From Syntrophales bacterium (lineage in GTDB: Bacteria; Desulfobacterota; Syntrophia; Syntrophales; UBA5619), in contig JAURXV010000053.1 of assembly GCA_030654195.1 (NCBI GenBank), forward strand, positions 16,958 through 80,957: DNA of 64,000 nt, read 5' to 3'. The notes under the pieces are model-generated. The model had not been told where the DNA came from. It ran no database searches and worked only from the letters and a program-made list of their open reading frames with translations. This document shows positions 8,362 to 29,133 of the stretch, piece by piece. Numbering within the stretch: position 1 is the first letter of the stretch; each line of letters starts with the position of its first letter. The translations under genes were made by a program, and so were the position numbers.

Positions 8362-8368
8362 AATCAGT

Positions 8369-13068: not shown

Positions 13069-13767
13069 GTGTCGGTGGCTGAAGCGGAGCGGAATGGACG
13101 AAGTATGATCATCGCCTGCCGCGTCATGGAGCCGGAGCTGGCCCATCTCCTTTCGGAGAAGAACGGAGAGGATGATCGGACGGATATCCTCTATCTCGAA
13201 CAGGCTCTTCATCGGACGCCGGCCAAACTGCTCGGTCAGTTACAGGAGAAGATCGATCAAGTCGCGCGGACAGCCTCGCGGATCGTCCTCGGTTACGGCC
13301 TCTGCGCCAAAGGGGTTGTGGGAGTCACGGCAGGTGAGCCGGAGCTGATCGTACCCCGCTGCCACGACTGCATCGCCCTGTTTCTCGGTTCACCGAACCG
13401 TCATCTGGAGATCTTCCGGGAAAAACCGGGGACCTACTACCTGACGCCGGGCTGGGTTGCGGATAATCAGGATCCACTCGGACTTATAGAGGAGCACGTC
13501 CCCCGGTATGGCCGGGAGACGGCGCAGTGGGTGATCGAGGAGGAGCTGAAACACTATACCCATATCGCCCTGATCGATACGGGGGTGGAGGAGATGGCGC
13601 CGCTCCGGGCGCGGGCGATGGAAAACGCCGCCGTCCTGAAGAAACAGTATGAGGAGATCCCGGGCAGCCTCGCTTATTTCCGCGAACTCCTCCGCGGCCC
13701 CTACGCGGAGGAAAAATTCCTGCGCCTCCAACCTGGAGAGAAGTTCACCCAGGAGATGGTCTTTTAG
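13069..13767 (+). CDS. DUF1638 domain protein, copy 1
   Basis: 232 aa. GTG start 6 nt after GAGGAGG; ATG at 13105 is an alternative. IIACRVMEPEL...LEQALHRTP...GYGLC...PRCHDCIALFLGS...YYLTPGW fits my recollection of DUF1638, a family found beside corrinoid methyltransferases. It is a close paralog of 29196-29936. Confidence 0.7.
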   Translation: MSVAEAERNGRSMIIACRVMEPELAHLLSEKNGEDDRTDILYLEQALHRTPAKLLGQLQEKIDQVARTASRIVLGYGLCAKGVVGVTAGEPELIVPRCHDCIALFLGSPNRHLEIFREKPGTYYLTPGWVADNQDPLGLIEEHVPRYGRETAQWVIEEELKHYTHIALIDTGVEEMAPLRARAMENAAVLKKQYEEIPGSLAYFRELLRGPYAEEKFLRLQPGEKFTQEMVF

Positions 13768-14088: not shown

Positions 14089-14117
14089 TTGACAACTTAG
14101 TAGAATAATCCTATTAT
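14089..14117 (+). promoter_or_regulatory. Sigma70-type promoter candidate for the TRAP#1/methyltransferase operon
   Basis: TTGACA (14089-14094), 17-nt spacer, TATTAT (14112-14117), set in a GC-poor spacer about 200 nt upstream of the DctP start. Confidence 0.55.
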
Positions 14118-14320
14118 CCCATCGGATCATGGCTCTGCCCGCAAAAGCAAACGAAATCAACGAAAACAATCCTGGCAGGGTGTTCTTTCTCAGGGAAAAA
14201 CAAGGCAAGAGAATCCGGAGGTCGATTCCTCAGGTCGTTCGATTGAATGATTGAGGACGGATTTCGCTCTCCGGCAAGACAACAAGGGAAATCCAGCAAA
14301 AAATCATGAAGGAGGAGTCT

Positions 14321-15346
14321 ATGAAGAAAAGATGGTTTGTAATCGTTTGTGTTGTTTCGGTTTTGCTCTGGGTGGCCGCACCGGCGGCGGCAGCCGAGGG
14401 TCCCATCAAATGGAAAGCCCAAACTCTTTGGAATCCCCAGGAAACCCCCCAGAGAACTTTTGAAGACTTCTGCAAGAAAGTCAAGATTATGACCAACGGC
14501 CGGCTGGAGATCGAACCCTATCCGGCAGGCTCCATCGTTCCGACCAACGAAACCCTCACCGCAGTTCAGAACAATGTTCTTCAGGCTATCCATGTCTGGC
14601 CGGGATACGCCAGCGGCAAGAACCCCGCCTTTGCCGCCCTGACCGACCTGATCTTCGCCTATGAGCATCCATGGGAACTGGACACCTTCATGCACTACCG
14701 CGGGGGGCTGGACATGCTGCGCGATCTCTACAAACCGTTCAACGCCTATACCGTAGGCGTGATGTTCTGGGGCGTCGAGTCTTGGCCGTCCAAAAAGCCC
14801 ATTGCCAAACTGGCGGACCTCAAGGGCATCAAGATCCGCGAACCGCAGGGCATGGAGGCTGAATTCATGGTCAAGGCCGGCGCCGCCGTGGTTGTCATGC
14901 CGGGCACGGAAATCTTTTCCGCTCTGGACAAGGGCGTTGTCCAGGCCACCAACTGGGCGACCCCTTCCATCAACGACAAAACCGGGTTTCACCAAATTGC
15001 GCCTTTCTTCACCTACCCCGGTTTCCACTCCATGCCCATCGGAGACTTCACGGTCAACAAGGGTGAATGGGATAAGCTTCCCCCAGATATCAAGCAGATC
15101 CTCACAACGGCCACCCGCGAGTGGTGCTGGGATTCCGTCGAAAGGATCGCGATGGATGACCTGAAGGTGGTGGGTGAAGCCAAATCCAAGAAAATGACGG
15201 CTGTGGCCTGGAGCACGGAAGAGAAGGCCAAGGCCCGTAAGATCGCCCAGGGAATCTGGCAGGACTGGAAGAAGAAAAACGAGCAGACCAAACTCGTAAT
15301 CGAGGCCCAGGAGGCCTGGCTCAGGGAATTGGGACGCATCAAATAA
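14321..15346 (+). CDS. TRAP transporter substrate-binding protein (DctP family), system 1
   Basis: The ORF track starts at 14306. I prefer ATG 14321, preceded by GGAGGAG, giving MKKRWFVIVCVVSVLLWVAAPAAAAEG as a signal peptide. The mature part IKWKAQTLW...GRLEIEPYPAGSIVP is homologous to the second DctP at 24186. Confidence 0.88.
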   Translation: MKKRWFVIVCVVSVLLWVAAPAAAAEGPIKWKAQTLWNPQETPQRTFEDFCKKVKIMTNGRLEIEPYPAGSIVPTNETLTAVQNNVLQAIHVWPGYASGKNPAFAALTDLIFAYEHPWELDTFMHYRGGLDMLRDLYKPFNAYTVGVMFWGVESWPSKKPIAKLADLKGIKIREPQGMEAEFMVKAGAAVVVMPGTEIFSALDKGVVQATNWATPSINDKTGFHQIAPFFTYPGFHSMPIGDFTVNKGEWDKLPPDIKQILTTATREWCWDSVERIAMDDLKVVGEAKSKKMTAVAWSTEEKAKARKIAQGIWQDWKKKNEQTKLVIEAQEAWLRELGRIK

Positions 15347-15368
15347 CGGTTGAACCTGATTTCATCCC

Positions 15369-15405
15369 GGGAGGAAGAGATTGTTATTCTCTTCCTCCCC
15401 TTTTC
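15369..15405 (+). terminator. Post-SBP stem-loop / partial terminator (attenuates dctQM relative to dctP)
   Basis: Perfect 12-bp stem gggaggaagaga (15369-15380) / tctcttcctccc (15388-15399) with a 7-nt loop, followed by CTTTTC. Confidence 0.55.
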
Positions 15406-15425
15406 ATACGATCCGGAGGGTTGTT

Positions 15426-15926
15426 TTGAAAACGGCACTTTCTATTATTGATGCTTTCAGTACAAAGATCGGCAAAGCGGTCAGCATCCTGTCCTTATTG
15501 ATTGCCTTCAGTATCGGTTATGAAGTCATGATGCGCGACTTTCTGACCCGTCCCACCACCTGGGTGGCGGAGGCGACGATCTTCGGCTGCTCCCTTCTCT
15601 ACCTTCTGGGGGGGCCCTGGACCATGCTGACCGACAACCATGTTCGCGTGGATGTCCTCTATGTCCGATTCAAGCCCCGTGTCCGGGCCTTGGTCGACTG
15701 TCTGACCTATTTCGCCTTTTCCCTCTATATCGTGGTGATGGCGATAGCCACCTTCCGCTATGCGGCGCAGTCCATCGGTCTGCGGGAGACGACCCAGTCG
15801 CCCTGGAATCCGCCCATCTATCCGTTCAAGGCGGCGATGTTCATCGCCCTGACGATGATTTTTCTCCAGGGCACGGCCAAATTCATCCGGGATCTCCATC
15901 TCGTCGTCAAGGGGAGGCCTTTATGA
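15426..15926 (+). CDS. TRAP transporter small permease (DctQ family), system 1
   Basis: The ORF track begins at 15381, which lies inside the hairpin loop. TTG at 15426, 7 nt after GGAGGG, gives LKTALSIIDAFSTKIGKAVSILSLL... It has four predicted TM segments and its stop overlaps the dctM start (ATGA). Confidence 0.75.
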   Translation: MKTALSIIDAFSTKIGKAVSILSLLIAFSIGYEVMMRDFLTRPTTWVAEATIFGCSLLYLLGGPWTMLTDNHVRVDVLYVRFKPRVRALVDCLTYFAFSLYIVVMAIATFRYAAQSIGLRETTQSPWNPPIYPFKAAMFIALTMIFLQGTAKFIRDLHLVVKGRPL

Positions 15927-17242
15927 GCATTGAATGGATCAGTATTCTGATTGTCGTCGGTATGCTGTCAATGATGGTCCTGGGGTTGCCCCTGGCCTGG
16001 TCGATCGGATCGGTGGCGGTGGTGCTGACCCTGACCAAGTTCGACTTGAACGTCATGGTCATGCTGGTTTCTCGGGTTTTCGACATGAGCATGAATTACA
16101 CCCTCATGTCCGTGCCCCTCTTCGTGCTGATGGCCGGCATCCTCCAGCGCTCCGGCGTGGCGGAACATCTCTTCCGCGCCGTTCATATCTGGACGGGGAG
16201 GCTCCGGGGAGGGCTGGCCGTGGGCACGATCATCGCCAACGCCATCATGGCCACGATGGTCGGCGTCATCGGGGCGGAGATCGTCACCTTCGGACTGCTT
16301 GCCCTGCCGGAGATGCTGAAAAAGAAATATAATTACAAACTGGCCTTGGGCAGCGTGGCCGCGGGGGGCGGTCTCGCCACCCTGATCCCGCCCAGCGTGG
16401 TCTTCATCGTCTATGGAATGACTGCGGGATGTTCGGTCGGCGAGCTCTTCCTGGCGGGCATCCTTCCGGGCATCGGACTGGGGCTCATCTTCATCCTCTA
16501 CGTCATCGTCCACTGCTGGCGGCACCCGGAATCGGCGCCGGTGACGGCGGCGGATGAAGAGACGCTGACCCTCCGCGAGAAGCTGGCGACGCTCCGGGGG
16601 CTGGTACTCCCGGTCCTCATCGCCGGCGGCGTCCTGGGTTCCATCTACGCCGGAATCGCGACGCCCTCCGAGGCGGCCGGCGTCGGCGTGATTTTCGCCA
16701 TCATCGCCGCCGTGATCAACCGCCGCTTCAGTATCTCGATAATGCGGGAAAGCCTCTTTGAAACCCTCAAAATCAGCAGCATGCTGGCCTGGCTTTTTTT
16801 CGGGGCGCAGACCATCATCGGCGCCTATACGCTGTCCGGGGGCACCACCTTCGTCACCAACGCCCTCAAGGCGATGGACCTCGGACCTTGGGGCACAATC
16901 ATCTTCATGCAGCTCATCTGGGTCTTTCTGGGCTGTTTTCTCGACTGGATCGGCATCCTCTTCCTGACGCTTCCCATTTTTCTCCCGATCGTCCTGGACA
17001 TGGGGTTTGACAACGTCTGGTTCGGCGTGGTGTTCTGCATGAACATGCACATTGCCTATCTGTCGCCCCCCTTCGCCCCTTCGGCCTTCTACCTGAAGAG
17101 CATCGCACCGCTGGAGATCACGATGGGGCAGATCTACATGGCGATAATGCCCTATCTCTGGCTCACCATTTTGGCCACGGTCATCGTCACCGCCTGGCCC
17201 GGCCTGTCGCTTTGGTTGCCCAGACTGATGATGAGAGGATAA
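15923..17242 (+). CDS. TRAP transporter large permease (DctM family), system 1
   Basis: 439 aa, highly hydrophobic. Homologous to 25860-27182 (shared ...YLSPPFAPSAFYLKSIAP / YLTPPMAPGIFYLKGIAP). Confidence 0.9.
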   Translation: MSIEWISILIVVGMLSMMVLGLPLAWSIGSVAVVLTLTKFDLNVMVMLVSRVFDMSMNYTLMSVPLFVLMAGILQRSGVAEHLFRAVHIWTGRLRGGLAVGTIIANAIMATMVGVIGAEIVTFGLLALPEMLKKKYNYKLALGSVAAGGGLATLIPPSVVFIVYGMTAGCSVGELFLAGILPGIGLGLIFILYVIVHCWRHPESAPVTAADEETLTLREKLATLRGLVLPVLIAGGVLGSIYAGIATPSEAAGVGVIFAIIAAVINRRFSISIMRESLFETLKISSMLAWLFFGAQTIIGAYTLSGGTTFVTNALKAMDLGPWGTIIFMQLIWVFLGCFLDWIGILFLTLPIFLPIVLDMGFDNVWFGVVFCMNMHIAYLSPPFAPSAFYLKSIAPLEITMGQIYMAIMPYLWLTILATVIVTAWPGLSLWLPRLMMRG

Positions 17243-17253
17243 GGGGAGTTCAG

Positions 17254-18012
17254 ATGGATTTTATAGGAATCAAAAAAATGTCCGTTGCCGATGAGGTGTT
17301 CAAAATCATCCATGACCGGATCCTCAACGGCGAACTGGCGCCCGGCGATATCCTGCCGCCCCAGGACCAACTGGCCCGGCAGTTTTCGGTTAGTCGCAAT
17401 ACGCTGCGGGAGGCGATCCACAAGCTGGCGGCCATGGGTCTGTTGAAGACCAAAGCCGGCGTCGGCACGATCGTGGAGATGGGCAGCCCGGCCAGTTACG
17501 TCTCCTCCCTGAAGGACCATCTGCTGATCACCTCCGCCACGGCCGGCGAGTTCTTCGAGGCCCGGTTTTTCATCGAGATGGCCACGGTTCAGCTTGCGGT
17601 CATGCGGGCAAGTCAGGCCGACCTGGATGCCCTCTCGGCCGCGATCGACCGGCAGGAGAATGCCTTCCGGGAGGGTGACCTGGAGACCTTCAGCACTGAG
17701 GACACCTGTTTTCACGCGGAGCTGGCCAACATCAGCGGCAACATGGTTCTGGCCAAAATTCTGGCGACACTCCGGGACCTCCTGTATCAGTTCATCGCCG
17801 AGGTCGCCGTGTTTCCCGGCGCCGTCGACAGGGCCATCCGGTTCCACCGGCAGATCGTCGCGGCCATCACCACCCGCAACATCGGGGCCGCCAAGATGAA
17901 GATGCTCGAACACCTTGACGATGTGGCGCAGGCGATCCGGAAGACAACAGGGAAAGACCTGGGGTTGCAGCCCCTCTTTGACATGGAAAAGCGACCCCTA
18001 AAAGGAAGGTGA
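17254..18012 (+). CDS. GntR-family transcriptional regulator with FCD (FadR C-terminal) domain
   Basis: ATG 17254 after AAGGGGAG. The winged helix reads LPPQDQLARQFSVSRNTLREAIHKLAAMGLLKTKAGVGT, followed by a helical FCD-like C-terminal domain. Confidence 0.85.
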   Translation: MDFIGIKKMSVADEVFKIIHDRILNGELAPGDILPPQDQLARQFSVSRNTLREAIHKLAAMGLLKTKAGVGTIVEMGSPASYVSSLKDHLLITSATAGEFFEARFFIEMATVQLAVMRASQADLDALSAAIDRQENAFREGDLETFSTEDTCFHAELANISGNMVLAKILATLRDLLYQFIAEVAVFPGAVDRAIRFHRQIVAAITTRNIGAAKMKMLEHLDDVAQAIRKTTGKDLGLQPLFDMEKRPLKGR

Positions 18013-18015
18013 ACG

Positions 18016-19026
18016 ATGAAAGCGACACCATACAATCTCTTCATGTCGGCCCTCTACGGCGGCCGGAAAGGGATCCGCCCTCCAGCGGGGAATCCCACGT
18101 CGATCGCCTGCGTGGAATTGATGAAGGCCTGCGGGGCCTTTTTCCCGGAGGCCCATCTGAACCCCCGCGCGATGGCCGACCTGGCCCTGGCCGGCCATGA
18201 GCTGGCGGGTTTTGACACGGTCATGCCGGAATACAGTGTTCATCAGGAATCGGCCGCGCTGGGCTGCGAGATGGACTGGGGAAACGAAACGCGGATGCCC
18301 GATGCCAAGACGGCGCCGCACGCGGATTTTTCGGATGTGATTGTCCCGGAAAACATCCTCGAAAAACCTTCCTTTCGGGTCGTTCTCGACGCCCTGTCCA
18401 TGCTACGCCGGGAGGTCGGGGGGCAGGCGGCGATCATCGGCAAGGTCATGGGTCCCTGGACGCTCTCCTACCATATGGCGGGCACGCAGAATTTTCTGCT
18501 GCAACTCGGTCTCGGCGAGAAGGATAAAATCAACCGCATGCTGAGACAGCTCATGCCGGTCACCATCGCCTTCGCCAACGCACAGTTCAGGGCCGGCGCC
18601 GATGCGGTGGTCCTGGCCGACCACGCCACCGGAAACCTGGTCGGACCTTACCATTACCGGGACTATCTGCTTCCCATCCATCAGGAGATCACCGCACGGG
18701 TGGGTGGGCCCATGATCCTCCACATTTGCGGCAACTGCCTCGACCGTCTGGAGTTCTTCGCCGAATCCGGCGTCGACGCCTACCACTTCGAATGGCAGGT
18801 GGACGCCAGGACGGCGGTCGAGAAAATCGGCAAACGGATTTCTCTGATCGGCAATCTGAACAACGCCAAGACCCTGTATCAGGGCACGCCGGAGGACGTC
18901 TACAAGCAGGCCCGTTATTCAATTGAGGCAGGCGTCGATATCATCGGGCCGGAGTGCGCCGTTCCCCTCACGACGCCCCTGGCCAATCTCCGGGCCATCC
19001 CGGCCGCAGTGCGGGAAGGTTACTGA
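18016..19026 (+). CDS. URO-D/MtaA-family methyltransferase (stand-alone, zinc-motif type)
   Basis: 336 aa. MtaA/MtbA-like sequence with the H-x-C-x(n)-C zinc pattern (MILHICGNC ... GPECAVP). It sits immediately upstream of a corrinoid protein. Confidence 0.8.
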   Translation: MKATPYNLFMSALYGGRKGIRPPAGNPTSIACVELMKACGAFFPEAHLNPRAMADLALAGHELAGFDTVMPEYSVHQESAALGCEMDWGNETRMPDAKTAPHADFSDVIVPENILEKPSFRVVLDALSMLRREVGGQAAIIGKVMGPWTLSYHMAGTQNFLLQLGLGEKDKINRMLRQLMPVTIAFANAQFRAGADAVVLADHATGNLVGPYHYRDYLLPIHQEITARVGGPMILHICGNCLDRLEFFAESGVDAYHFEWQVDARTAVEKIGKRISLIGNLNNAKTLYQGTPEDVYKQARYSIEAGVDIIGPECAVPLTTPLANLRAIPAAVREGY

Positions 19027-19048: not shown

Positions 19049-19687
19049 ATGAATGAATCCATCCAAAAGATCAAAGAAGGCGTCATTGAGGGCCGTCACA
19101 AGGAAATCGAATCCCTGGTCCGCGAGATCTGTAAAACGGGGATATCCCCGGACAAGGTGATTCAAGAGGGATTGATTGCCGCTATGAATGTGGTCGGTCA
19201 GAAATTCAGCGACGGGGAGATCTTTGTCCCCGAAATGATGGTTTCCGCCATGACGATGAAACTCGGCCTCAACATCGTCAAACCCCTCATGACCGGCAAG
19301 GCCGGCGCACCCAAAGGAACCGTTCTGATGGGAACTGTCAAAGGCGATCTTCACGACATCGGCAAGAATATCGTGGTCATGATGCTGGAAGGGGCCGGTT
19401 TCCAGGTGATCGACCTGGGCGTCGATATCGATGTGGAGAAAGTCGTGGCAGCGGTGGCCGAAGTCCGCCCCCAGGTGCTGGGCCTTTCAGCGCTGCTTAC
19501 CACCACCATGCCGGAGATGAAACGCGTTATCGAAGAACTCCGGGCGCGCGGTCTGCGGGACCGGGTCAAGGTTATGGTGGGGGGCGCCCCCGTGGACGCC
19601 GCCTTCGCCGAAAAGATCGGCGCCGACGGCTACGGAAGTGATGCGGTGCAAGCCGTGGCTCTGGTCCGCAGCTTCGTCGGTCATTAA
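19049..19687 (+). CDS. Corrinoid (cobalamin-binding) protein
   Basis: The ORF track starts at 18923. ATG 19049 after AAGGAGAAGGAAG gives a 212-aa protein with a B12 cap helical bundle plus Rossmann domain. Motifs: DxHxxG (GDLHDIGKN), SALLTTT and VMVGGAP. Confidence 0.9.
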   Translation: MNESIQKIKEGVIEGRHKEIESLVREICKTGISPDKVIQEGLIAAMNVVGQKFSDGEIFVPEMMVSAMTMKLGLNIVKPLMTGKAGAPKGTVLMGTVKGDLHDIGKNIVVMMLEGAGFQVIDLGVDIDVEKVVAAVAEVRPQVLGLSALLTTTMPEMKRVIEELRARGLRDRVKVMVGGAPVDAAFAEKIGADGYGSDAVQAVALVRSFVGH

Positions 19688-19706: not shown

Positions 19707-21008
19707 ATGGATTATCCCCGTTTTGGCCTGATCCGGCAGATTTTTCCCGACGACCCGGCCCCCTCACCCAGGCAGGCCGTGCTTGCCGAACTGGAGAGGA
19801 GCGGGCTGCTTGACCCTGTCCGCGTCGGACAGTCCGTCCTGATCACGGCCGGGAGCCGCGGCATTTCGTCAATGCCTGAGATCCTCGCAACCTTGGTGGG
19901 CGCCATCATCGCCCGCAAGGCCCTGCCAATCCTGCTGCCGGCCATGGGCAGCCACGGCGGGGGCACCGCCCAGGGACAGGTGCATGCGCTGACCTCGATG
20001 GGATTGACCGAGGAAACGACCGGCGCAAGGATCCACGATTCGCTGGACATGGTCCGGATCGGCGAGGTCGGGGAAGGCGTGCCGGTCCTCGTGGAGCGCG
20101 CCGCCGCCGAAGCGGACCACGTCATCATCGTCAACCGCGTCAAGGAACACTCGGAATACATCGGCCCCACCGAATCCGGCCTCCTGAAGATGGCCGTCGT
20201 GGGCTTGGGAAGAGCGGCGGGCGCCCGGATCATGCACCAACTGGCCGTCAACATCTCTTATGCCGAGGCGATCGCGTCCATCGCCCGGGTCATCCTGGAC
20301 CGCCTCCCCATCCTGGGAGGAATCGCGATCCTGGAGGATCACCGGAATCGCCTGCGGCGTCTGGAATGCGTTCCGGCGGGAAATATTTTCCAACGCGAGC
20401 CGGAACTTCTCGAAGAATCGAAGATCTACAAGCCAAAACTCCCTTTTGATCGGTTGGATGTTTTGCTGGTGGATAAGATCGGCAAGGACATCTCCGGATC
20501 CGGGATGGACACGAAGGTCATCGGCCGGATCATGAACATTTACGAACAGGAATGCACGTCGCCTTTCATCACGAGGATCGTTGTCCGGGATCTCTCCAGC
20601 GAATCGGATGGCAACGCCACGGGCATCGGCCTCGCCGATTTTATCACTCGCCGCGCGTTGAGCAAGGTCGATTCGGACGCCACGGCCCTGAATTGCATCA
20701 CGGCCGTAGCGCCGGAAAAGGGGCGCCTGCCGATCGCGCTTCCCAGCGATCGGGAAGCTCTCGATGCGGCCTTCGCCAATATCGGCCTCTGGACGCCGGA
20801 TAAGGTCCGTGCGGCATGGATTGCCAATACCCGCGATCTGGGGTGGCTTGCCGTCTCCAGCGCTCTCTATGAAGAATCACGACATCTCCAGGGGCTGGCG
20901 ATCCACGGCGGCCTCTTCACCCTCCCTTTCCGTCCGACGGGAGAACTGCCGTATCTGGCCGATCTCATCCCGTCCGACCATCGCGATTCCAAGGAGCAAC
21001 AATCATAA
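19707..21008 (+). CDS. LarA-N-like (DUF2088 / lactate-racemase-domain) protein, function unknown
   Basis: ATG 19707 after AGGAG, 433 aa. ITAGSRGI...PAMGSHGGGTAQGQ...IIVNRVKEHSEY.GPTESGLLKM matches my recollection of the DUF2088/LarA N-terminal family. This assignment is from memory only. Confidence 0.5.
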   Translation: MDYPRFGLIRQIFPDDPAPSPRQAVLAELERSGLLDPVRVGQSVLITAGSRGISSMPEILATLVGAIIARKALPILLPAMGSHGGGTAQGQVHALTSMGLTEETTGARIHDSLDMVRIGEVGEGVPVLVERAAAEADHVIIVNRVKEHSEYIGPTESGLLKMAVVGLGRAAGARIMHQLAVNISYAEAIASIARVILDRLPILGGIAILEDHRNRLRRLECVPAGNIFQREPELLEESKIYKPKLPFDRLDVLLVDKIGKDISGSGMDTKVIGRIMNIYEQECTSPFITRIVVRDLSSESDGNATGIGLADFITRRALSKVDSDATALNCITAVAPEKGRLPIALPSDREALDAAFANIGLWTPDKVRAAWIANTRDLGWLAVSSALYEESRHLQGLAIHGGLFTLPFRPTGELPYLADLIPSDHRDSKEQQS

Positions 21009-21349
21009 TGTCCGACAAGGAGCGTATGTTGAAGGCTGCCCGGGGAGAATGGGCTGACCGGCTCCCCTGGGTTCCCCGGATCGATCGCTGGTACAACGCC
21101 AACAGCCTCCAGGGAACCCTGCCTGCAAAATATGGGAAAGGGGCGACGCTGGACGAGATTGCCGATGATATCGGATGGGGCTACCACAAGATCGTTCCCG
21201 AATTTCTCAACATCCGCTCCCCCGAAGACAACATCGACCGGGGGCTCGGCGTCTACCGCCTCCGGGGAATGGTGTACCGGCCGGAACTTGTCGGCGTGGG
21301 CCGGGAAGTCCGGAAGGAGGGGGACCGCTCGTCCTTTCACATCTCTTGA
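21008..21349 (+). pseudogene. Truncated N-terminal fragment of a URO-D-type methyltransferase (paralog of 27196-29133)
   Basis: The 113-aa product MSDKERMLKAARGEWADRLPWVPRIDRWYNANSLQGTLPAKYGKGATLDEIADDIGWGYHKIVPEFL... aligns with residues 1-~105 of the 645-aa fusion (MMTKKERILMAMRGETPDMLPYTPRFDLWYNSNSYRGTLPKRHQGRSHDEIARAEGWALHKVIPELL...). It then ends at TGA, and no homologous continuation exists in any frame. Confidence 0.5.
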
Positions 21350-21459: not shown

Positions 21460-22254
21460 ATGCTGATTATCGCCGAGAGGATCAATGCGTCGCGAAAGAC
21501 GATCGCCCAGGCCATCTCCGCCGCCGATCGGACCTTCATCCAGGGCGAGGCGAAGGCGCAGACCCTGGCGGGGGCGCATTACATCGATGTGAATGCCGGC
21601 ACCTTTATCGGGGAGGAGGCCGAAAAACTCAAATGGATCGTGGAAGCGGTGCAGGAGGTGACGGATCTTCCACTCTCCATCGACAGCCCGGACCCTGAGG
21701 TGATCCGGGCGATGCTGCCGCTGATGAAAAAGGCGCCGGTCATCAACTCCATCACGCTGGAACCCTCCCGGATCGAAGGTATCCTGCCGCTCGTGACGGA
21801 GTATAGAACCAAGGTGATCGCACTGTGTCAGGCGGAGCACGAGATGGCCGAAACCGCGGACGATAAGGTGAGGATTGCGGGCCGGCTTATCGAGACGCTG
21901 ACCGCCGCCGGCGTTCCGCTGGACGACATCTACATCGATCCGCTGGTCTATCCGCTTTCGACCAACCCGCAATCGGCCGGCGCCACGCTCGAGGCCATCG
22001 GCGGGATCATGAAAAGATTCCCGGGAGTCCATACGGTCTGCGGCCTGACGAATGTCTCCTATGGTCTTCCCGCGAGAAAACTGATCAACCGGGCGTTTCT
22101 CGCGGCGGCGATCACCATGGGGCTGGATTCGGCTATCATCGATCCGACGGACAAGCACCTCTATGCGATGCTCAAGGCCGTTACCCTGGTCGTCGGCAAG
22201 GACGACTTCTGCATGGATTACATCTGCGCCTTCCGGGAAGGGCGTGTCGAATAA
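21460..22254 (+). CDS. Pterin-binding methyltransferase (methyl-corrinoid:THF MT2), copy 2
   Basis: 264 aa, colinear paralog of 12256-13050 with the same motif set. Nucleotide homology begins exactly at the ATG. Confidence 0.85.
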   Translation: MLIIAERINASRKTIAQAISAADRTFIQGEAKAQTLAGAHYIDVNAGTFIGEEAEKLKWIVEAVQEVTDLPLSIDSPDPEVIRAMLPLMKKAPVINSITLEPSRIEGILPLVTEYRTKVIALCQAEHEMAETADDKVRIAGRLIETLTAAGVPLDDIYIDPLVYPLSTNPQSAGATLEAIGGIMKRFPGVHTVCGLTNVSYGLPARKLINRAFLAAAITMGLDSAIIDPTDKHLYAMLKAVTLVVGKDDFCMDYICAFREGRVE

Positions 22255-22322: not shown

Positions 22323-24098
22323 ATGAATCGAGAGCTGAAGCCGGATTTTGAAAGGTATCTGAAGGCCCTCCACTGCGAGGAACCGGACCGGGTTCCCCAG
22401 GGGGACTGGCATGTAGACCAGCGGCCCAAGGAGTCCTTCATGGGGAAGCCCATTAAAACCCTGCAGGACCATGTCGATTTTTGGTATACCGCCGGTTACG
22501 ACTACGTGACCGCTTCCTCAGGCATTCTTGAACCGGTTCGGGCGCCCGAGGGGATGATGACGAAAGGCGAGGGCGTGCATACGGAATACGGGGACAAGGT
22601 GTCCCGCGAATGGGCCAACACGCACGAGGGAGTTCTGACGAACTGGGAGAAGTTCGAAAAGTACCGGTGGCCAGCGATCGATGATTTTGATCTCTCCAAA
22701 TGGGACGCCTTCGACAGGATCCTTCCCAAGGGGATGAAGGCGATCCTGCTTTTGGGGAAGATCTACACCACGGCGTGGATGTACATGGGGGCGGAGACCT
22801 TTTTCAACGCGCTGGAGGAGGACGAGGAACTCGTGGCAGCGATCATCAACAAGATCGGCGAAATCCAGTACCAGACCTTCCTGCGGGTCACCGAGCACCC
22901 TTGCGTGGGGGCAGTGATCAATCCGGACGATATCGCCTTCAATACGGGGCTTCTGGTCAACCCGAAGTATCTGAGGAAATACATCTTCCCCTGGTACAAG
23001 AAAATGGGTAAGATCTGCCGGGAGAAGGGAATCGGTTTCATCTTCCACAGCGACGGCGACTGTACCGAAGTGATGGAAGACTTGATCGACTGCGGCTTCC
23101 ACGCCTTCCACCCCATCCAGCCCAACGCGATGAACATCGTCGAGGTGAAGAAAAAGTGGGGGAAGACGCTCTGCCTCATCGGGAACATAAATCTCGACTC
23201 CACATTGACCCTGGGGACGCCCGAGGATGTCCGGGCGGAGGTGTACGAGAGGATCCGGACGATCGCCCCGGGCGGCGGCTATATGGTCTCCTCGTCGAAC
23301 TCGATCACCGATTACGTTCCGGCCGAGAACATGAAGGCCCTGCTGGATGCGACCTATGAATTTGGTCAATATCCGATCCGGCTCGAGGAGGGAGGCGTCC
23401 AGGGAAAGTTCTGGACCTCCCAGACGAAGGTCCGCAAGACCGAGACGACGAAGATGGAAACGGGTCTCGACGTGGAGACATACGCGGAGACCCTGATTGC
23501 AAACGATATCCCGAAGGCGATTTCCATGATGCAGAAGGATATCGACGGTGGAACAGCTCCACAGGAGGTCGTTTCCCGGGGGTTGATCCCGGCGATCACG
23601 ATTGTGGGAGAGAAATTCCAGAATGGTCAGATCTACATTCCGGAGATGATGATTGCGGCGCGTGCGATGTCGACGACGCTGGACCATTTTAAGGAAAAGC
23701 TGGCCGGCAAGGGTGCGACAAAAAAGCTGGGAACGGTCGTGATTGGGACGGTTCAAGGGGATCTCCATGACATCGGAAAGAACCTGGTGACGATGATCCT
23801 GAAGGGTCAGGGCTTCCAGGTGGAGGACCTCGGCGTCTCCGTGAGCACGGCGAAGTTCGTCCAGGCGGTCAATGATAAGAAACCGGAAATCCTGGCGATG
23901 AGCGCCCTTTTGACAACGACGATGACCGAGATGAAGAACACGATTGAGGGCCTTAAGGTGGCCGGTCTTAGGCAGCAGGTGAAGGTGATCGTGGGTGGAG
24001 CGCCGGTGACGCCGGCGTTTGCAGAGCAGATCGGGGCGGACGGCACCGCATATGATGCCCCGGGCGCGGCCAAGCTCTGCAAGGAACTGCTGCGATAG
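22323..24098 (+). CDS. Fusion protein: URO-D-family methyltransferase domain + corrinoid-binding domain (CmuA-like architecture), fusion 1
   Basis: 591 aa. The N-terminal ~350 aa is URO-D-like (EPDRVP..., FIFHSDGDC, GGGYMVSSSNSI). The C-terminal ~210 aa is a B12 cap plus Rossmann domain with GDLHDIGKN, SALLTTT and VIVGGAP. Confidence 0.8.
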   Translation: MNRELKPDFERYLKALHCEEPDRVPQGDWHVDQRPKESFMGKPIKTLQDHVDFWYTAGYDYVTASSGILEPVRAPEGMMTKGEGVHTEYGDKVSREWANTHEGVLTNWEKFEKYRWPAIDDFDLSKWDAFDRILPKGMKAILLLGKIYTTAWMYMGAETFFNALEEDEELVAAIINKIGEIQYQTFLRVTEHPCVGAVINPDDIAFNTGLLVNPKYLRKYIFPWYKKMGKICREKGIGFIFHSDGDCTEVMEDLIDCGFHAFHPIQPNAMNIVEVKKKWGKTLCLIGNINLDSTLTLGTPEDVRAEVYERIRTIAPGGGYMVSSSNSITDYVPAENMKALLDATYEFGQYPIRLEEGGVQGKFWTSQTKVRKTETTKMETGLDVETYAETLIANDIPKAISMMQKDIDGGTAPQEVVSRGLIPAITIVGEKFQNGQIYIPEMMIAARAMSTTLDHFKEKLAGKGATKKLGTVVIGTVQGDLHDIGKNLVTMILKGQGFQVEDLGVSVSTAKFVQAVNDKKPEILAMSALLTTTMTEMKNTIEGLKVAGLRQQVKVIVGGAPVTPAFAEQIGADGTAYDAPGAAKLCKELLR

Positions 24099-24185
24099 GT
24101 ACGGGGATCTGTTTCACCGGTCCAAAGCAGCATGGGGCTGCAAAGGCGGGGAAGCACAAGCTTTTTAAATCAGGAGGGAAAAATC

Positions 24186-25262
24186 ATGGGGAAGACAAGG
24201 CGTGAGTTTTTAAAGAAGGCTGGGGTCGCCGCAGCGGCAGGGGCGGGGGTTGTCCTGACGGGGAACAGGAGATTGTACGCCCAGGACAAGGTGTTCAAAT
24301 GGAAAATGGCAACGTCGTGGACGACCGGAATGCCCCTTTACACCCATATGGCCAGGGTCCTGCCGGATGTGGTCAAAAAGATGAGCAACGGAAGACTGAT
24401 CATCGACATTTTCCCGGCGGGGGCCATCGTGCCGGCCCTGGAAGGGGTGGACGCTACGAGAAGAGGGGTCTGCCAGATTGCCCATACCTGGCCCGGCTAC
24501 GACATCGGCATCTCAAAGGGGTCGGCGATCATCGGGGGATTCGCCGGGAGCCCGAACTCCGAGGTGATGATGCATTGGATCTACAGCGGCGGGGGATATA
24601 AGCTCTGGCAGGATTACCGCCGGGAAGTATTCAATGTGATCGCCTTTCCGGGGGGGATGCGTCCCACCGAAGTATTTGCCCATTCGCACAAACCGGTGCG
24701 CTCCCTTGCGGATTTCAAGGGATTCAAAATGAGAACCGTCGGGGCGTGGGCGGACATCCTTCCCAAACTGGGAGGTTCCGTGATCACCCTTCCCGGCGGC
24801 GAGGTCCTGCCGGCCCTGCAGCAGAAGGTGATCGACGCCACGGAATGGGCCTGCGCAGGGGAGAATCTGTCGATGGGATTCCATGAGGTGGCCAGGTATG
24901 TCATCATTCCCGGGATTCATCAGCCAAGCGCCCCCTTTGAATATGTCGTGAATGTAAAGGCCTGGGAGGAGTTGCCGGCGGACCTCAAGGCGATCGTGGA
25001 GGGAGCGGCGAAGATTGCAACGCTGGACTCCTGGACCTATCTCGGCGCCCTCGACATGGGGGCGATGGATGTCTTCAAAAAGAAGGGAAACACGATCATC
25101 GAACTGGATGTGGATGTACAGAAGGCTGCCTACAAGCTGGGGCTTGAATGGGGACGGGAAGCTGCAGCCAAGGATCCATGGACAAAGAAACTCTTCGAAT
25201 CCCAGATCGACTTTCACAAGAGATGGGAGATCGTTGAAAACACGAGGTCACTCAAATATTGA
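24186..25262 (+). CDS. TRAP transporter substrate-binding protein (DctP family) with twin-arginine signal, system 2
   Basis: The ORF track starts at 24132. ATG 24186 after GGAGGG gives MGKTRREFLKKAGVAAAAGAG (Tat motif RREFLK). The mature part FKWKMATSW...GRLIIDIFPAGAIVP is DctP-like. Confidence 0.85.
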   Translation: MGKTRREFLKKAGVAAAAGAGVVLTGNRRLYAQDKVFKWKMATSWTTGMPLYTHMARVLPDVVKKMSNGRLIIDIFPAGAIVPALEGVDATRRGVCQIAHTWPGYDIGISKGSAIIGGFAGSPNSEVMMHWIYSGGGYKLWQDYRREVFNVIAFPGGMRPTEVFAHSHKPVRSLADFKGFKMRTVGAWADILPKLGGSVITLPGGEVLPALQQKVIDATEWACAGENLSMGFHEVARYVIIPGIHQPSAPFEYVVNVKAWEELPADLKAIVEGAAKIATLDSWTYLGALDMGAMDVFKKKGNTIIELDVDVQKAAYKLGLEWGREAAAKDPWTKKLFESQIDFHKRWEIVENTRSLKY

Positions 25263-25265
25263 TGA

Positions 25266-25308
25266 AAATCCGCCGGGCGTACCGGATGAACGGACGCCCG
25301 GCGGATTT
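25266..25308 (+). terminator. Post-SBP stem-loop (intercistronic attenuator / mRNA stabiliser)
   Basis: Perfect 15-bp inverted repeat aaatccgccgggcgt (25266-25280) / acgcccggcggattt (25294-25308) with a 13-nt loop, starting 4 nt after the dctP stop. Only a short T run follows. Confidence 0.5.
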
Positions 25309-25344
25309 AACTCGATCTCGCTTTGCCCTGTATGAGAGAAGGGA

Positions 25345-25863
25345 GTGATTTCCATGATGGCATCTTTTGTAAAGTTTATCGATGGCCTGAGCGGATGGAC
25401 GGGGAAATGGGTTGCCTGGTTCATCATCCCCAACGTGCTGGCGCTCGTCTATGAGGTCATTGCACGCTATATTCTGAACAGCCCCACCATCTGGTCCTAT
25501 GAAGTGACCTACTTCCTCTACGGGAGCCATTTCCTGCTGGGGGCGGCCTATGTCCTTTCCGTCGATGCCCACATCCGGATCGACATCTTCACCTCGCACC
25601 TCTCTCCGCGGACGAGGGCCGTCATCGATCTGGTCGGCTATCTGCTGCTGTTCTTCCCGGTGGTCATCGCCCTCGTCTATGCGGGAGGACAGTATGTCAT
25701 GCAGTCCTTCGAGATGGGCGAAAAATCGGGTCTCAGCCCGTGGAGGCCCTACCTCTATCCATACAAGGCCGTGATAACCATCAGCTTCATTCTTCTCTTT
25801 CTGCAGGGGATAGCTTGTTTTATCCGCAATATCAATTTTTTGGCGAGAGGAGAAAAGCCATGA
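25345..25863 (+). CDS. TRAP transporter small permease (DctQ family), system 2
   Basis: 172 aa from GTG 25345. ATG 25354, 8 nt after GAAGGGAG, may be the true start. Four TM segments, and the stop overlaps the dctM start. Confidence 0.8.
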   Translation: MISMMASFVKFIDGLSGWTGKWVAWFIIPNVLALVYEVIARYILNSPTIWSYEVTYFLYGSHFLLGAAYVLSVDAHIRIDIFTSHLSPRTRAVIDLVGYLLLFFPVVIALVYAGGQYVMQSFEMGEKSGLSPWRPYLYPYKAVITISFILLFLQGIACFIRNINFLARGEKP

Positions 25864-27182
25864 TGGAGAACATCTCCCTTTTCATGTTTCCGGTGATGAT
25901 CCTGGTCGTATTTGCAGGATTTCCCGTTACTTTCAGCCTGATGGGCATTTCTCTTTATTTCGGCATCGTCTGTTTCGGACCGGAGATCATCCCGATGATC
26001 ATCCGCCGCGTCTACGGCGTGGCCGACAACTATGTCCTCGCCGCCGTGCCGCTGTTCATTTTCATGGGAACGATGCTGGAGAGATCGGGCATCGCCAAAA
26101 TCCTTTTTGAGACGATCAGCATGTGGATGGGACGCATTAAAAACGGCCTGGCGGTGACGACCATCCTGATGTGCACGATCATCGCCGCCTGCACGGGGAT
26201 TATCGGAGCGGCCGAGGTGATGGTCGGGGTGATGGCCATACCGCCGATGATGAAACGGGGCTACAACCACGCCCTGATCGCCGGCACGGTCATCGCCGGC
26301 GGGGCGCTCGGCACCATCATCCCGCCGAGCGTCGTCACCGTCGTCTACGGTCCCGCCGCGGGGATATCCGTCGGCCGTCTGCTGATCGCCACGATCTTCC
26401 CCGGCCTTCTGATCTCGTCGGTCTATGTCTTGTACATTGTTATCCGTTCCTACGGCCAAAAGGGGTTTGCCCCGCCGATCTTTTCCGAGGATCGGGATAT
26501 TCCCCTGTCGCGGAAACTCAAGGCTACGGTTACCGGAATGCTGCCGTCCGTTGTCCTGATCTTCACCGTGATGGGCACCATCATTCTCGGCTTTGCCGCA
26601 CCCACGGAAGCCGCCGCCCTCGGCGCCTTCGGAAGCGTCCTGCTGACGATCGGCTACAGAAACTTTACCTTGAAGGTGTTGCAGGAGGCGACCATCCAGA
26701 CGCTCAAGATCTCCAGCATGATGATGATGATCCTGCTCGGAGGGTTCATGTTCAGCGGCGTCTTCCTCGGGCTCGGGGGCAGCGACGCCACGGAGAGGAT
26801 GCTGTCGGCCTTCAACATGGGGCCATGGGCGGTTCTTGTTTTCTTTCTATTTATCGTCTACCTTGCCGGGTTCCTCCTCGACTGGGCCAGTATCCTGCTC
26901 ATCTTCGTCCCCATCTTTTCGCCGATCATCGACAAACTGGGTTTTGACCCGATCTGGTTCGGCGCACTCCTCATCATGATGATCCAGACATCCTATCTGA
27001 CGCCGCCGATGGCGCCGGGGATCTTTTATCTGAAGGGGATTGCCCCGCCCGAGCTGACGACCCGGGAGATGTTTCGGGGTATTGTCCCCTATATGATGCT
27101 CCAGCTTCTCGCCATCGCCGTTGTGGTGTTTTTCCCGCAGATCGCCCTCTGGCTGCCGGAAAAACTGATCGGTTGGAATTAG
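25860..27182 (+). CDS. TRAP transporter large permease (DctM family), system 2
   Basis: The ORF track starts at 25740, inside dctQ. ATG 25860 overlaps the dctQ TGA (ATGA) and gives MMENISLFMFPV..., 440 aa, polytopic. Confidence 0.9.
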   Translation: MMENISLFMFPVMILVVFAGFPVTFSLMGISLYFGIVCFGPEIIPMIIRRVYGVADNYVLAAVPLFIFMGTMLERSGIAKILFETISMWMGRIKNGLAVTTILMCTIIAACTGIIGAAEVMVGVMAIPPMMKRGYNHALIAGTVIAGGALGTIIPPSVVTVVYGPAAGISVGRLLIATIFPGLLISSVYVLYIVIRSYGQKGFAPPIFSEDRDIPLSRKLKATVTGMLPSVVLIFTVMGTIILGFAAPTEAAALGAFGSVLLTIGYRNFTLKVLQEATIQTLKISSMMMMILLGGFMFSGVFLGLGGSDATERMLSAFNMGPWAVLVFFLFIVYLAGFLLDWASILLIFVPIFSPIIDKLGFDPIWFGALLIMMIQTSYLTPPMAPGIFYLKGIAPPELTTREMFRGIVPYMMLQLLAIAVVVFFPQIALWLPEKLIGWN

Positions 27183-27195: not shown

Positions 27196-29133
27196 ATGAT
27201 GACCAAAAAAGAACGCATCCTCATGGCCATGCGGGGCGAGACCCCGGACATGCTGCCCTATACGCCGCGCTTCGACCTCTGGTACAATTCCAACTCCTAC
27301 CGGGGCACCCTGCCCAAGCGCCACCAGGGGCGCAGCCACGATGAAATCGCCCGTGCGGAAGGGTGGGCTCTGCACAAGGTCATCCCGGAACTCCTGGAAG
27401 TGGTCGATCCCTGGGAGAACGTGACGCGGGGCATCGGACTCTACAGCCTCAAGGAAAACGGTTACAAGATCAACTTTTCGCCCAACGTCCATCTGGAGGT
27501 CCGGAAGAGCCGCCAGGGCGACGAGGAATCCACGCGGGTGGAGTACCATACCCCCAAGGGTGTGGTCAGCACCAAGGAAGTGATCAACGAGGAGATGCGC
27601 AATGCGGGTGTTTCCATCACCTGGGTGCAGGAGCATGCCATCAAGCGGCCCGAGGATTACGAGATCTGGGCATACATCTTTGAGAACATCACGGTGACCC
27701 CGGACTATGACCGTTACCGGGCCTGGCAGAACCGCATCGGCGACGACGGCGTGGCAGTGATGATGGGCACCTTCTCCGCCTCGCCCACTCACCACATCCA
27801 GCGTGATTTTCTGGATGCCACCGAGTTCTTTTTTCATTACAAAGATCACGCAAGGGAGATGCGCCGACTGGCCGAGGCCATCGGCCTGGTGTACGAGCAA
27901 ACCCTCAGGGTGGTGGGCGATTCGCCGGCTGAAGTGGTCCTGTGGGGCGCCAACTACGACGACATGATCACCTACCCGCCTTACTTTCAGAAGGAACTGA
28001 CTCCCTGGATACGGAAAGCCTCCGATTACCTGGCTGCGAAGGGCAAACTGGTGATCTGCCACTGCGACGGTGAGAACCAGGGCCTCATCGACCTGATTGC
28101 CGATTCGGGCATGCACGTGGCCGAAGCGGTCTGCTGTGCACCCATGACAAAGCTGCCGATCGAGACCTACTGCGAGCGCTGGTGCAAATCCGGGAAACTG
28201 ACCCTCATGGGAGGCCTGATCCAGTCCATGCTTTCACCGGCCACGTCTAGCATCGAGGACCTCAATGCCTACCTTGACCATTTCTTCAAGGCCGTGACGC
28301 CGGGCAGCCGCATCATCCTGTCCGTGGCCGACACCACCCCGCCCAACGCGGATTTTGACCGCCTGGCCATGATCGCCGAGCGCGTGGAAAGGGAAGGCCG
28401 CCTGCCCCTCGAGGCCGGCGCCTTCCGCCCCCTGACCGAAGCGCAGTTGAAGCCGGTCGCCGGCCTCATGGCGCAAAAGGTGCCCGACGAGACCTTCCAG
28501 ACCGTCCACGCGGACGTGCTCGCCGGCAACGATGCGGACATCAAGGTTCACATCCAGGCGCTGCTCGACCAGGGGGTGAACGCCAAGGAGATTCTCAACC
28601 GCGGCATGCTCAGCGCCATGGAGGTGATCAGCGGGCGCTTCCGCGAAGGCACGGTGTTTATTCCCGAGGTATTGCTGTCCGCCCGTGCCATGAAGGAGGC
28701 CCTCGTCGTGCTCGAACCCTATCTGGCACAGGAAAAGAAGGATGTGAGCGGCAAAATTCTGCTCGGTACGGTGCGCGGCGACCTGCACGACATCGGCAAG
28801 AACATGGTGGCCACCATGCTGCGCGGCGTCGGTTTCGAGGTGGTGGACCTCGGCGTCAACATCACGGCGGAGGGTTTCGTTGCGGAGGTTGAAAGACAAC
28901 GGCCGGACATTCTGGGGATGTCTGCCCTGCTGACCACCACCATGCCCGAGATGAAGAAAACCATCGATGCCCTCATAGCCCGCGGGTTGCGGGGCCAGGT
29001 CAAGGTTGTGGTGGGCGGTGCGCCGCTCAACGAGAAATTTGCCCGGGATATCGGGGCGGACGGATACGGGAGCGATGCGGGGTCTGGCGTGGATTTGGTC
29101 AGACAGTTGCTGAAAGGGAATGTCCCTCGTTAG
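27196..29133 (+). CDS. Fusion protein: URO-D-family methyltransferase domain + corrinoid-binding domain (CmuA-like architecture), fusion 2
   Basis: 645 aa. The N-terminal ~420 aa is URO-D-like (KERILMAMRGETPDMLPYTPR..., VICHCDGEN, SVADTTPPNA). The C-terminal part is a B12 cap plus Rossmann domain with GDLHDIGKN, SALLTTT and VVVGGAP. Confidence 0.8.
   Translation: MMTKKERILMAMRGETPDMLPYTPRFDLWYNSNSYRGTLPKRHQGRSHDEIARAEGWALHKVIPELLEVVDPWENVTRGIGLYSLKENGYKINFSPNVHLEVRKSRQGDEESTRVEYHTPKGVVSTKEVINEEMRNAGVSITWVQEHAIKRPEDYEIWAYIFENITVTPDYDRYRAWQNRIGDDGVAVMMGTFSASPTHHIQRDFLDATEFFFHYKDHAREMRRLAEAIGLVYEQTLRVVGDSPAEVVLWGANYDDMITYPPYFQKELTPWIRKASDYLAAKGKLVICHCDGENQGLIDLIADSGMHVAEAVCCAPMTKLPIETYCERWCKSGKLTLMGGLIQSMLSPATSSIEDLNAYLDHFFKAVTPGSRIILSVADTTPPNADFDRLAMIAERVEREGRLPLEAGAFRPLTEAQLKPVAGLMAQKVPDETFQTVHADVLAGNDADIKVHIQALLDQGVNAKEILNRGMLSAMEVISGRFREGTVFIPEVLLSARAMKEALVVLEPYLAQEKKDVSGKILLGTVRGDLHDIGKNMVATMLRGVGFEVVDLGVNITAEGFVAEVERQRPDILGMSALLTTTMPEMKKTIDALIARGLRGQVKVVVGGAPLNEKFARDIGADGYGSDAGSGVDLVRQLLKGNVPR

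Follow-up and report, generated by a model that had tools for sequence, protein, structure and literature searches.

In a 64-kb stretch of contig JAURXV010000053.1 from a Syntrophales bacterium (assembly GCA_030654195.1; the whole analyzed stretch is called the window), the gene at positions 19707-21008 of the forward strand encodes a member of the lactate racemase (LarA) superfamily and lies within an operon for corrinoid-dependent methyl transfer. Sequence comparison places the 433-amino-acid protein in group 22 of the LarA homologs, as a predicted nickel-pincer nucleotide (NPN)-dependent 2-hydroxy-acid isomerase. The association with corrinoid genes is non-random and confined to one subclade of the group, and this branch-specific embedding of a catalogued group in corrinoid methyl-transfer operons is the new element of our analysis. 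The original prediction, made from the DNA alone, held that the protein may interconvert stereoisomers of the methyltransferase substrate or of the demethylated product; this is the best-supported account of its role. The outcomes that it named as refuting (no LarA-like profile match, missing cofactor-binding residues, random genomic association) were each checked, and none of them occurred. We lean, by a modest degree of confidence, toward a LarA homolog that racemizes or epimerizes either the methylated 2-hydroxy acid taken up by the system or the acid left after demethylation.

The open reading frame (ORF) has an intact, stop-free translation and contains LITAGSRGI, PAMGSHGGGTAQGQ, and VNRVKEHSEYIGPTESGLLKM. 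A longer frame that begins with a GTG codon at 19638 is also open over the gene. The ATG at 19707 is the true start, because homologs share the N-terminus M-x-Y-P-x-F-G-L-I-R-Q and an AGGAGA Shine-Dalgarno sequence lies 6 nt upstream. Translation and coordinates agree with the first description of the gene as a 433-residue ORF bearing the quoted motifs between a corrinoid protein and a methyltransferase fragment. That description correctly put the start 20 nt past the last base of the corrinoid protein stop; 19 nt lie between the two genes. The overlap reported at the other end was found as TAATG, in which the TAA stop (21006-21008) gives its last A to the ATG of the next ORF (1-nt overlap).

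Profile searches confirmed the LarA-like assignment first suggested by the motifs. Pfam Lar_N (PF09861/DUF2088) matched residues 56-149 at 29.7 bits, above its gathering cut-off of 23.3, and the NCBIfam model NF052515, "nickel pincer cofactor-dependent isomerase, group 22," matched at 441.4 bits against a curated equivalog cut-off of 400, spanning positions 2-389 of 392 and hence its full length. DUF362 (PF04015), which had also been named as a candidate, fell below threshold (20.7 versus 24 bits) and is a clan relative only; it serves as the outgroup of LarA homologs (PMC11770544). The NCBIfam search gave no match of the protein to lactate racemase proper (LarA group 1, NF033504). The group numbering follows Desguin et al. 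(2020), who sorted 354 LarA homologs into 25 groups (PMC7583248). Group-22 members from Rubrobacter and Bacillus coagulans in Dataset S2 of that study carry ITAGSRGI, PAMGSHGG, and ESGxLKM, and the LarA homolog in the window shares the motifs ITAGSRGI, PAMGSHGG, RxKxH, and ESGxLKM with the members printed there.

Structure prediction gave the same answer. An AlphaFold (AF2) model built from a 70-sequence alignment was confident over both domains (predicted local distance difference test, 93.9; predicted template modeling score, 0.90) and has the predicted two-domain LarA fold, with both domains covered. When this model was used as the Foldseek query, the best 19 matches were all LarA-family structures. 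Searches of PDB sequences, with either the single protein or a 26-sequence profile, returned no LarA match; kinship to canonical LarA is therefore visible only by fold comparison and profile-profile alignment. Identity to Lactiplantibacillus plantarum LarA (PDB 5HUQ) and its characterized homologs is only 13-19%.

The profile-profile comparison was performed with hhalign, pairing a group-22 alignment with three canonical LarA homologs, one of which, a malate-racemase-like gene from the same genome, was anchored to PDB numbering. The global alignment probability was 75%, and the alignment is reliable in the N-terminal domain, where the motifs align; residue claims are restricted to that domain. 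Residues R51, H83, H148, K161, and H177 aligned onto L. plantarum R75, H108, H174, K184, and H200, the NPN-binding and catalytic set named in PMC11770544. K161 falls on K184, which tethers NPN through a thioamide, and H177 on the Ni-coordinating H200, with an equal Lys-to-His spacing of 16 residues; H83 and H148 fall on the two catalytic histidines and R51 on Arg75. The NPN lysine, nickel histidine, arginine, and both catalytic histidines of the characterized enzymes are thus all present, although the spacing from catalytic His to Lys is three residues longer in the LarA homolog. Among 163 group-22 sequences compared, sampled from more than 4,500 at E ≤ 1e-10, none of the five residues varied wherever the position was covered, even in sequences as little as 31% identical. 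A predicted LarA fold that retains the cofactor-tethering His and Lys residues is what the original prediction had proposed to look for.

These residues bear on whether the protein is an enzyme at all. Its very low similarity to canonical LarA, with no PDB match by sequence or profile, could point to a cofactor-less, non-catalytic LarA relic, such as a ligand-binding or regulatory protein, and the truncated gene remnant that adjoins it shows that the locus has been rearranged. We find a relic scarcely credible: five cofactor-binding and catalytic residues are conserved across the 163 sequences, the ORF is intact with a good ribosome-binding site, the structural model is confident over both domains, and the genes for cofactor synthesis are present.

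Those genes were found by a profile search of the genome, a metagenome-assembled genome of 3.1 Mb and 95% completeness. The genes larC, larB, and larE lie side by side on contig C87, each above its cut-off: LarC at 4450-5580 (487 bits), LarB at 5760-6398 (294 bits; cut-off, 175), and LarE at 6546-7322 (317 bits; cut-off, 150). All three homologs, suggested in the original prediction as a check, are therefore encoded elsewhere in the genome, and the LarA homolog would share the dependence on larB/larC/larE with the characterized LarA enzymes. Because the set of two histidines, lysine, histidine, and arginine is conserved and LarBCE are present, the default mechanism is probably NPN-dependent inversion at C2 of a 2-hydroxy carboxylate. 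The genome also encodes two canonical LarA homologs and a second group-22 gene. The latter (locus L120, C147:2869-6766), 38% identical to the LarA homolog in the window, has an ILVD_EDD dehydratase gene on one side and a DHDPS-type aldolase gene on the other. A tripartite ATP-independent periplasmic (TRAP) transporter is encoded nearby, and this arrangement is a classical epimerase-dehydratase-aldolase acid-sugar module.

We then turn to genomic context. Of 401 genomes sampled from the phylum, 70 had NF052515 matches that exceeded the cut-off, and two to four copies per genome were common. Flanks of ±9.3 kb around 80 group-22 genes were searched with the window proteins; 78 of these genes lie outside the close subclade, and 76 of the 78 loci lack corrinoid methyltransferase genes, while two carry them. 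A corrinoid link for the family as a whole was rejected on this count. The immediate neighbors outside the subclade are iron-type alcohol dehydrogenases, D-2-hydroxy-acid dehydrogenases, carboxylate transporters of the TRAP, TctA, and major facilitator superfamily (MFS) types, ILVD_EDD dehydratases, DHDPS-type aldolases, and FAD-linked oxidases. The published survey of the group likewise lists short-chain dehydrogenase/reductase (SDR) dehydrogenases, dihydroxy-acid dehydratase, LarE, TRAP transporters, and sugar kinases as usual neighbors (PMC7583248), with TRAP transporters and LarE frequent in its Table S1, and the TRAP genes are a feature that the window shares.

The subclade presents a different picture. 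Defined as proteins at least 53% identical to the LarA homolog and forming one branch of the tree, it comprised 85 loci from a contig index, one genome scan, and one metagenome scan, which a 90% identity threshold reduced to 57 clusters. Of these, 36 contain genes for corrinoid methyl transfer or reactivation, counted in whatever flank is present, and another 14 are too short to tell. Among informative clusters, 36 of 43 are thus corrinoid-linked, compared with 2 of ~60 outside-branch loci with comparable flanks. The linked genes encode URO-D methyltransferases, corrinoid proteins, pterin-binding proteins, DUF1638 proteins, and RACo. The co-occurrence with URO-D and B12-binding genes, which the original prediction had proposed to count, is hence non-random within one subclade and does not extend to the family. 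The branch also differs from group 22 at large in sequence, being at most about 47% identical to the other sampled members and having conserved residues of its own (E147, E150, R169, M176, K270, and W362), and its neighbors are corrinoid methyltransferase genes rather than the tabulated SDR, dehydratase, and sugar-kinase genes.

Within the subclade, the link survives changes in gene order. Two arrangements recur: GntR-URO-D-CP-(Pterin_bind)-LarAH-(DUF1638)-(RACo) and DctPQM-LarAH-GntR-URO-D-URO-D::B12, where CP is the corrinoid protein and LarAH the LarA homolog. The association persists whether the gene follows the corrinoid protein, follows the pterin-binding gene, or lies between DctM and GntR, and across transporters of the TRAP, MFS (L134 and the locus carrying P0044), and ATP-binding cassette (ABC; L023) types; the genes are co-directional in all loci but one. 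Unbiased clustering of all ORFs in 41 loci recovered an MtaA-like URO-D protein in 29, GntR in 27, a second URO-D or URO-D::B12 protein in 21, a corrinoid protein in 20, DctP/Q/M in 19-20, and Pterin_bind in 12, along with RACo and DUF1638. The MtaA-like URO-D protein is the commonest partner, with copies 71-98% identical in most corrinoid-linked loci.

The two corrinoid-linked loci outside the subclade look like independent recruitments of group 22 to methyltransferases, since a methyltransferase gene is the immediate neighbor in both. In L097 (G354:C2, 8227-10554), a copy of the MtaA-like URO-D gene, 71% identical, is followed after 52 nt by a group-22 gene of a different lineage, 38% identical to that in the window. 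In L091 (G399:C18, 5448-11777, minus strand), genes for a URO-D-like protein (400 aa), a group-22 protein (40% identical), an enolase, a glycerate kinase (DUF4147/MOFRL), and a URO-D protein (346 aa) follow one another. In L097, a metallo-beta-lactamase-fold gene and genes of the pyruvate:ferredoxin-oxidoreductase type come after the group-22 gene, and the tight operon of L091 adjoins an MttB-family methyltransferase and an Opp-type ABC importer. A separate group-22 locus, L077 (G067:C16), has one in-frame TAG in an otherwise full-length match (511 bits); a recoded codon, a pseudogene, or an error in the sequence could each account for it.

Genes of the nickel-pincer system itself also appear in corrinoid clusters. 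Three corrinoid-linked loci (L134, at 3003-3995; L018; L166) encode LarC (Ni_insertion) ~6 kb ahead of the group-22 gene, which ties cofactor synthesis physically to the corrinoid cluster. In L022 (13924-15246), L190, and L195, a canonical LarA homolog (Lar_N plus LarA_C, below every NCBIfam equivalog cut-off) is found inside the corrinoid cluster together with the group-22 gene, so these loci carry two different nickel-pincer enzymes beside methyltransferases.

In the window, a full corrinoid set is encoded together: URO-D methyltransferases, corrinoid protein, methyl-tetrahydrofolate methyltransferase, and reductive activator. Reading along the plus strand, the upstream edge of the island is formed by a second pterin-binding methyltransferase (12256-13050) and the first of two DUF1638 copies (13069-13767). 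TRAP transporter 1 (14306-17242) follows, with DctP at 14306-15346, DctQ at 15381-15926, and DctM at 15923-17242; the nearest solved relatives of this DctP are the Thermus lactate-binding protein, TakP, and binders of pyruvate or keto acids, so that the ligands of the set are lactate, pyruvate, or 2-oxo acids. Next come a GntR/FCD regulator, assigned by domain match (17212-18012; the true start may be slightly downstream of 17212), a 336-aa MtaA-type URO-D methyltransferase (18016-19026; 4AY7 match, 184 bits) that retains the H-x-C...C zinc ligands of the Methanosarcina enzyme, and the 212-aa corrinoid protein directly upstream of the LarA homolog (19049-19687; B12-binding_2 plus B12-binding). 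Downstream of the LarA homolog, the 113-aa ORF that overlaps its stop (21008-21349) is the remnant of an N-terminal URO-D-like::B12 fusion gene, with 45% identity (E 2e-29) to the first 115 residues of a 645-aa fusion encoded further along. Relatives L022 and L174 keep an intact URO-D-like::B12 fusion of ~636 aa at the same position, directly after the LarA homolog, so the window has lost most of this gene through rearrangement.

The island continues with a 264-aa pterin-binding methyl-tetrahydrofolate:corrinoid methyltransferase of the MeTr/AcsE-like type (21460-22254; NF005719, 316 bits), a 591-aa URO-D::corrinoid-binding fusion of CmuA-like architecture (22323-24098), TRAP transporter 2 (24132-27182; DctP 24132-25262, DctQ 25345-25863, DctM 25740-27182), and the divergent 645-aa URO-D-like::corrinoid-binding fusion (27196-29133). 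The second DUF1638 copy (29196-29936), an accessory of corrinoid reactivation by genetics (PMC5764234), is followed on the minus strand by a RACo/RamA-type reductive activator of corrinoid enzymes (29875-31929; [2Fe-2S] plus ASKHA). Both DUF1638 and RamA/RACo-like proteins have been tied to B12 reactivation by genetics in Phaeobacter and Desulfovibrio (PMC5764234; PMC12478193). A consensus scan located a near-perfect promoter-like site at 14089-14117, ahead of the first dctP, and found no terminator-like site on the plus strand between 16787 and 25865; both results fit a single transcript, as weak evidence. Upstream of the island (6810-12060), the window also encodes a formiminotransferase-cyclodeaminase and an OpuA-type glycine-betaine ABC importer, made up of OpuAC, two permeases, and an ATPase that carries CBS domains, and further upstream still an Opp-type importer with an MmgE/PrpD-family gene.

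This layout also speaks to the possibility that the TRAP transporter, GntR regulator, and isomerase form an independent module for hydroxy-acid uptake and use, co-located or co-regulated with the corrinoid genes while sharing no substrate with them. Group 22 is TRAP-linked at 30% in Table S1 of Desguin et al. (PMC7583248), DctM is among the top neighbors here, many subclade loci place the gene right after dctM and before gntR, and the paralog in the same genome belongs to a module with TRAP, dehydratase, and aldolase genes. We nevertheless consider such a module unlikely. The corrinoid link holds where the transporter is of the MFS (L134, the locus carrying P0044) or ABC (L023) type, with the gene then following the corrinoid protein or the pterin-binding gene; in the window, the gene sits tightly between those for the corrinoid protein and the methyltransferases, 19 nt from the one and overlapping the other by 1 nt; and the module would have no outlet, since no other hydroxy-acid catabolic gene is conserved in the subclade loci.

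A role in corrinoid reactivation alongside RACo and DUF1638, for instance by supplying the activase with reductant derived from a hydroxy acid, would account for another part of the context. L020, L017/L124, and L136 have RACo as the very next gene (overlapping by 4 nt in L136), L023, L019, L159, and others have DUF1638 after it, and another group-22 lineage adjoins RACo in L074 and L080. The L080 case was rejected as support, as its RACo is part of a carbon monoxide dehydrogenase/acetyl-CoA synthase (CODH/ACS) cluster (CdhD, CooC-like) on the other strand and is transcribed away. NPN is an obligate hydride (two-electron) carrier inside a closed racemase, and the LarA homolog lacks any flavin or Fe-S domain through which single electrons could reach the [2Fe-2S] cluster. 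Nearly all well-flanked loci contain URO-D or corrinoid-protein genes, yet about half of them lack RACo within 10 kb, and most clusters with an MtaA-like methyltransferase lack a group-22 gene. Reactivation is accordingly highly improbable in our assessment.

The substrate pocket raises a third alternative. The published group-22 signature at D72, R75, H108, H174, F175, F176, K184, and H200 reads A R H H T D K H (PMC7583248), and the LarA homolog follows the group in keeping R75, H108, H174, K184, and H200 and replacing D72, Y294, Q295, and K298. Specifically, the lactate-holding Y294, Q295, and K298 become D, T, and I, D72 becomes A, and F175/F176 become T/D; S149 and E150 directly follow the catalytic His148 in the LarA homolog. 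The C-terminal substrate-holding residues of characterized LarA enzymes are hence not conserved. Such a pocket could serve a hidden-redox step within demethylation, in which a C2 hydroxyl is transiently oxidized to a ketone that makes a neighboring aliphatic methoxy or methylthio group cleavable, or an isomerization of the carbon skeleton that precedes or follows methyl transfer. Desguin et al. suggest that divergent groups of LarA homologs may catalyze other hydride-mediated reactions, the subclade-specific acidic residues E147 and E150 flank the catalytic His148, and translational coupling to methyltransferase genes is frequent, as in the 4-nt overlap with the 636-aa fusion in L022 and the TAATG in the window. 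Yet both catalytic histidines, the signature of proton transfer on two faces and thus of inversion, are kept in every sequence; judging by the title of PMC12611868, LarA homologs with other chemistry would be expected to lose one of them. Sister lineages 57-62% identical, moreover, occur in ordinary hydroxy-acid and sugar-acid pathways where an epimerase fits. We therefore view the hidden-redox step as improbable, and cofactor binding with stereo-inversion at C2 as the activity to be expected of the LarA homolog from its residues.

Under the favored stereo-inversion role, the TRAP importer would bring in a small methylated 2-hydroxy acid, and the URO-D, corrinoid, and pterin-binding proteins would pass its methyl group to cobalamin and then to tetrahydrofolate. 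The LarA homolog would equilibrate stereoisomers at C2, either of the substrate itself or of what remains after demethylation, converting an isomer unusable by the methyltransferase or by central metabolism into a usable one. As in the LarA mechanism, a hydride would move from C2 to the cofactor, leaving a transient 2-oxo acid, and return to the opposite face, with His83 and His148 as the probable acid/base pair. The gene would be co-transcribed with those for the TRAP transporter, the GntR sensor, the methyltransferases, the corrinoid protein, and the DUF1638/RACo reactivation pair.

The contexts of relatives fit small hydroxy acids as substrates. L135 and L128 (57-58% identical) lie beside ILVD_EDD dehydratases, TRAP genes, and a 2-oxo-acid dehydrogenase complex, and L161 and L151 (60% identical) beside another group-22 gene and genes for a D-2-hydroxy-acid dehydrogenase, an iron-type alcohol dehydrogenase, and a protein of the glyoxalase family. 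In L106, the order is LarA homolog, glycerate kinase (DUF4147/MOFRL), enolase. Three loci of the subclade that are corrinoid-linked (L023, L209, and the one carrying P0044) also have a glycerate-kinase-like gene in their flanks, and the operon of L091 provides the clearest hint that glycerate may be the product of such a demethylation route. We infer a glycerate-like or lactate-like C3 acid as the lead substrate. The atom bearing the methyl group could be O or S, as a thioether would also fit a zinc-type MtaA-like enzyme. At five related loci (L185, at 7865-9526; L182; L193; L200; L201), a fusion of a pyridine-nucleotide-disulfide oxidoreductase and a rhodanese, of the CoA-disulfide/persulfide reductase type, is encoded directly upstream of the LarA homolog. 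Its presence suggests that some versions of the cluster may involve thiol or persulfide chemistry, and it would likewise fit a thioether.

Comparison with known systems sets this assembly apart. Characterized LarA homologs include malate, 2-hydroxyglutarate, phenyllactate, short-chain hydroxy-acid, and glycerate racemases as well as gluconate 2-epimerases, and none of the characterized enzymes is encoded in a corrinoid methyltransferase operon. Conversely, the window shares URO-D methyltransferases, a corrinoid protein, a methyl-tetrahydrofolate methyltransferase, and RACo plus DUF1638 with three-component corrinoid systems (the O-demethylases of Acetobacterium and Desulfitobacterium, MtpA/MtpC and MtaABC of methanogens, and MtgABC), but the characterized systems contain no LarA-type enzyme. 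Its TRAP genes, whose binding protein resembles lactate and 2-oxo-acid binders, and its GntR/FCD gene point to a small aliphatic carboxylate rather than a phenyl methyl ether, methanol, or methylamine. A precedent is 4-hydroxyproline betaine 2-epimerase (HpbD), reportedly described by Zhao and coworkers in Nature in 2013 as encoded with demethylases, so that a methylated chiral carboxylate is funneled into metabolism. HpbD is a member of the enolase superfamily, however, and works alongside demethylases that are Rieske oxygenases found in aerobes, with no part for nickel-pincer or cobalamin chemistry.

Several observations weigh against the stereo-inversion role. Group 22 was entered as "unknown function" in the original classification (PMC7583248), and a 2024 survey left it uncharacterized (PMC11770544). 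The substrate pocket predicted for group 22 differs from that of LarA, given the replaced Y294, Q295, K298, and D72, and stereo-inversion is to that extent assumed. In seven of the 57 subclade clusters, no corrinoid genes occur although each side extends for at least 4 kb, and the counts include metagenome loci fetched with subclade-biased peptide patterns and relatives that are not independent samples. Only 4 of 15 genomes with an MtaA-like ortholog (at least 70% identity) have a group-22 gene beside it, so the LarA homolog is an accessory of some such systems rather than a core part. Unbiased ORF clustering across the 41 subclade loci found no conserved downstream catabolic enzyme, and the context therefore does not name the product.

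In the library searched, no paper was found on a LarA-type gene paired with a corrinoid methyltransferase operon, in keeping with the remark in the original prediction that this co-occurrence was not known from characterized methyltransferase systems. A preprint on the "mlp" gene cluster makes no mention of LarA, and an NPN-dependent aldo-keto reductase (PMC13524815) has a different fold. On a tentative and fairly doubtful reading, two rare organometallic cofactors may serve one pathway, a nickel-pincer enzyme and cobalamin methyltransferases together letting anaerobes use a methylated aliphatic 2-hydroxy acid as a source of both methyl groups and carbon. O- or S-methyl derivatives of glycerate or lactate are candidates, and the nickel-pincer enzyme might contribute either the correct stereoisomer or a transient C2 oxidation that enables ether or thioether cleavage. 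To our knowledge, methylated aliphatic 2-hydroxy acids are not among the recognized substrates of corrinoid demethylases.

The finding is hypothesis-generating and gives both the LarA and the corrinoid fields a testable lead. Group 22 is one of the larger groups of LarA homologs, and the contexts described here narrow the search for its substrates to small 2-hydroxy and 2,3-dihydroxy acids. Among Desulfobacterota (Thermodesulfobacteriota) of sediment and peat, the URO-D systems linked to TRAP and GntR genes are orphans, for which the LarA homolog offers a handle for substrate screening: with a stereochemistry-fixing enzyme in the operon, one would expect a chiral 2-hydroxy carboxylate as the substrate or product. 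Should the pairing prove functional, this would be the first pathway to need both the nickel-pincer and cobalamin cofactors, and aliphatic hydroxy acids would join the known methyl donors of anaerobic C1 metabolism.

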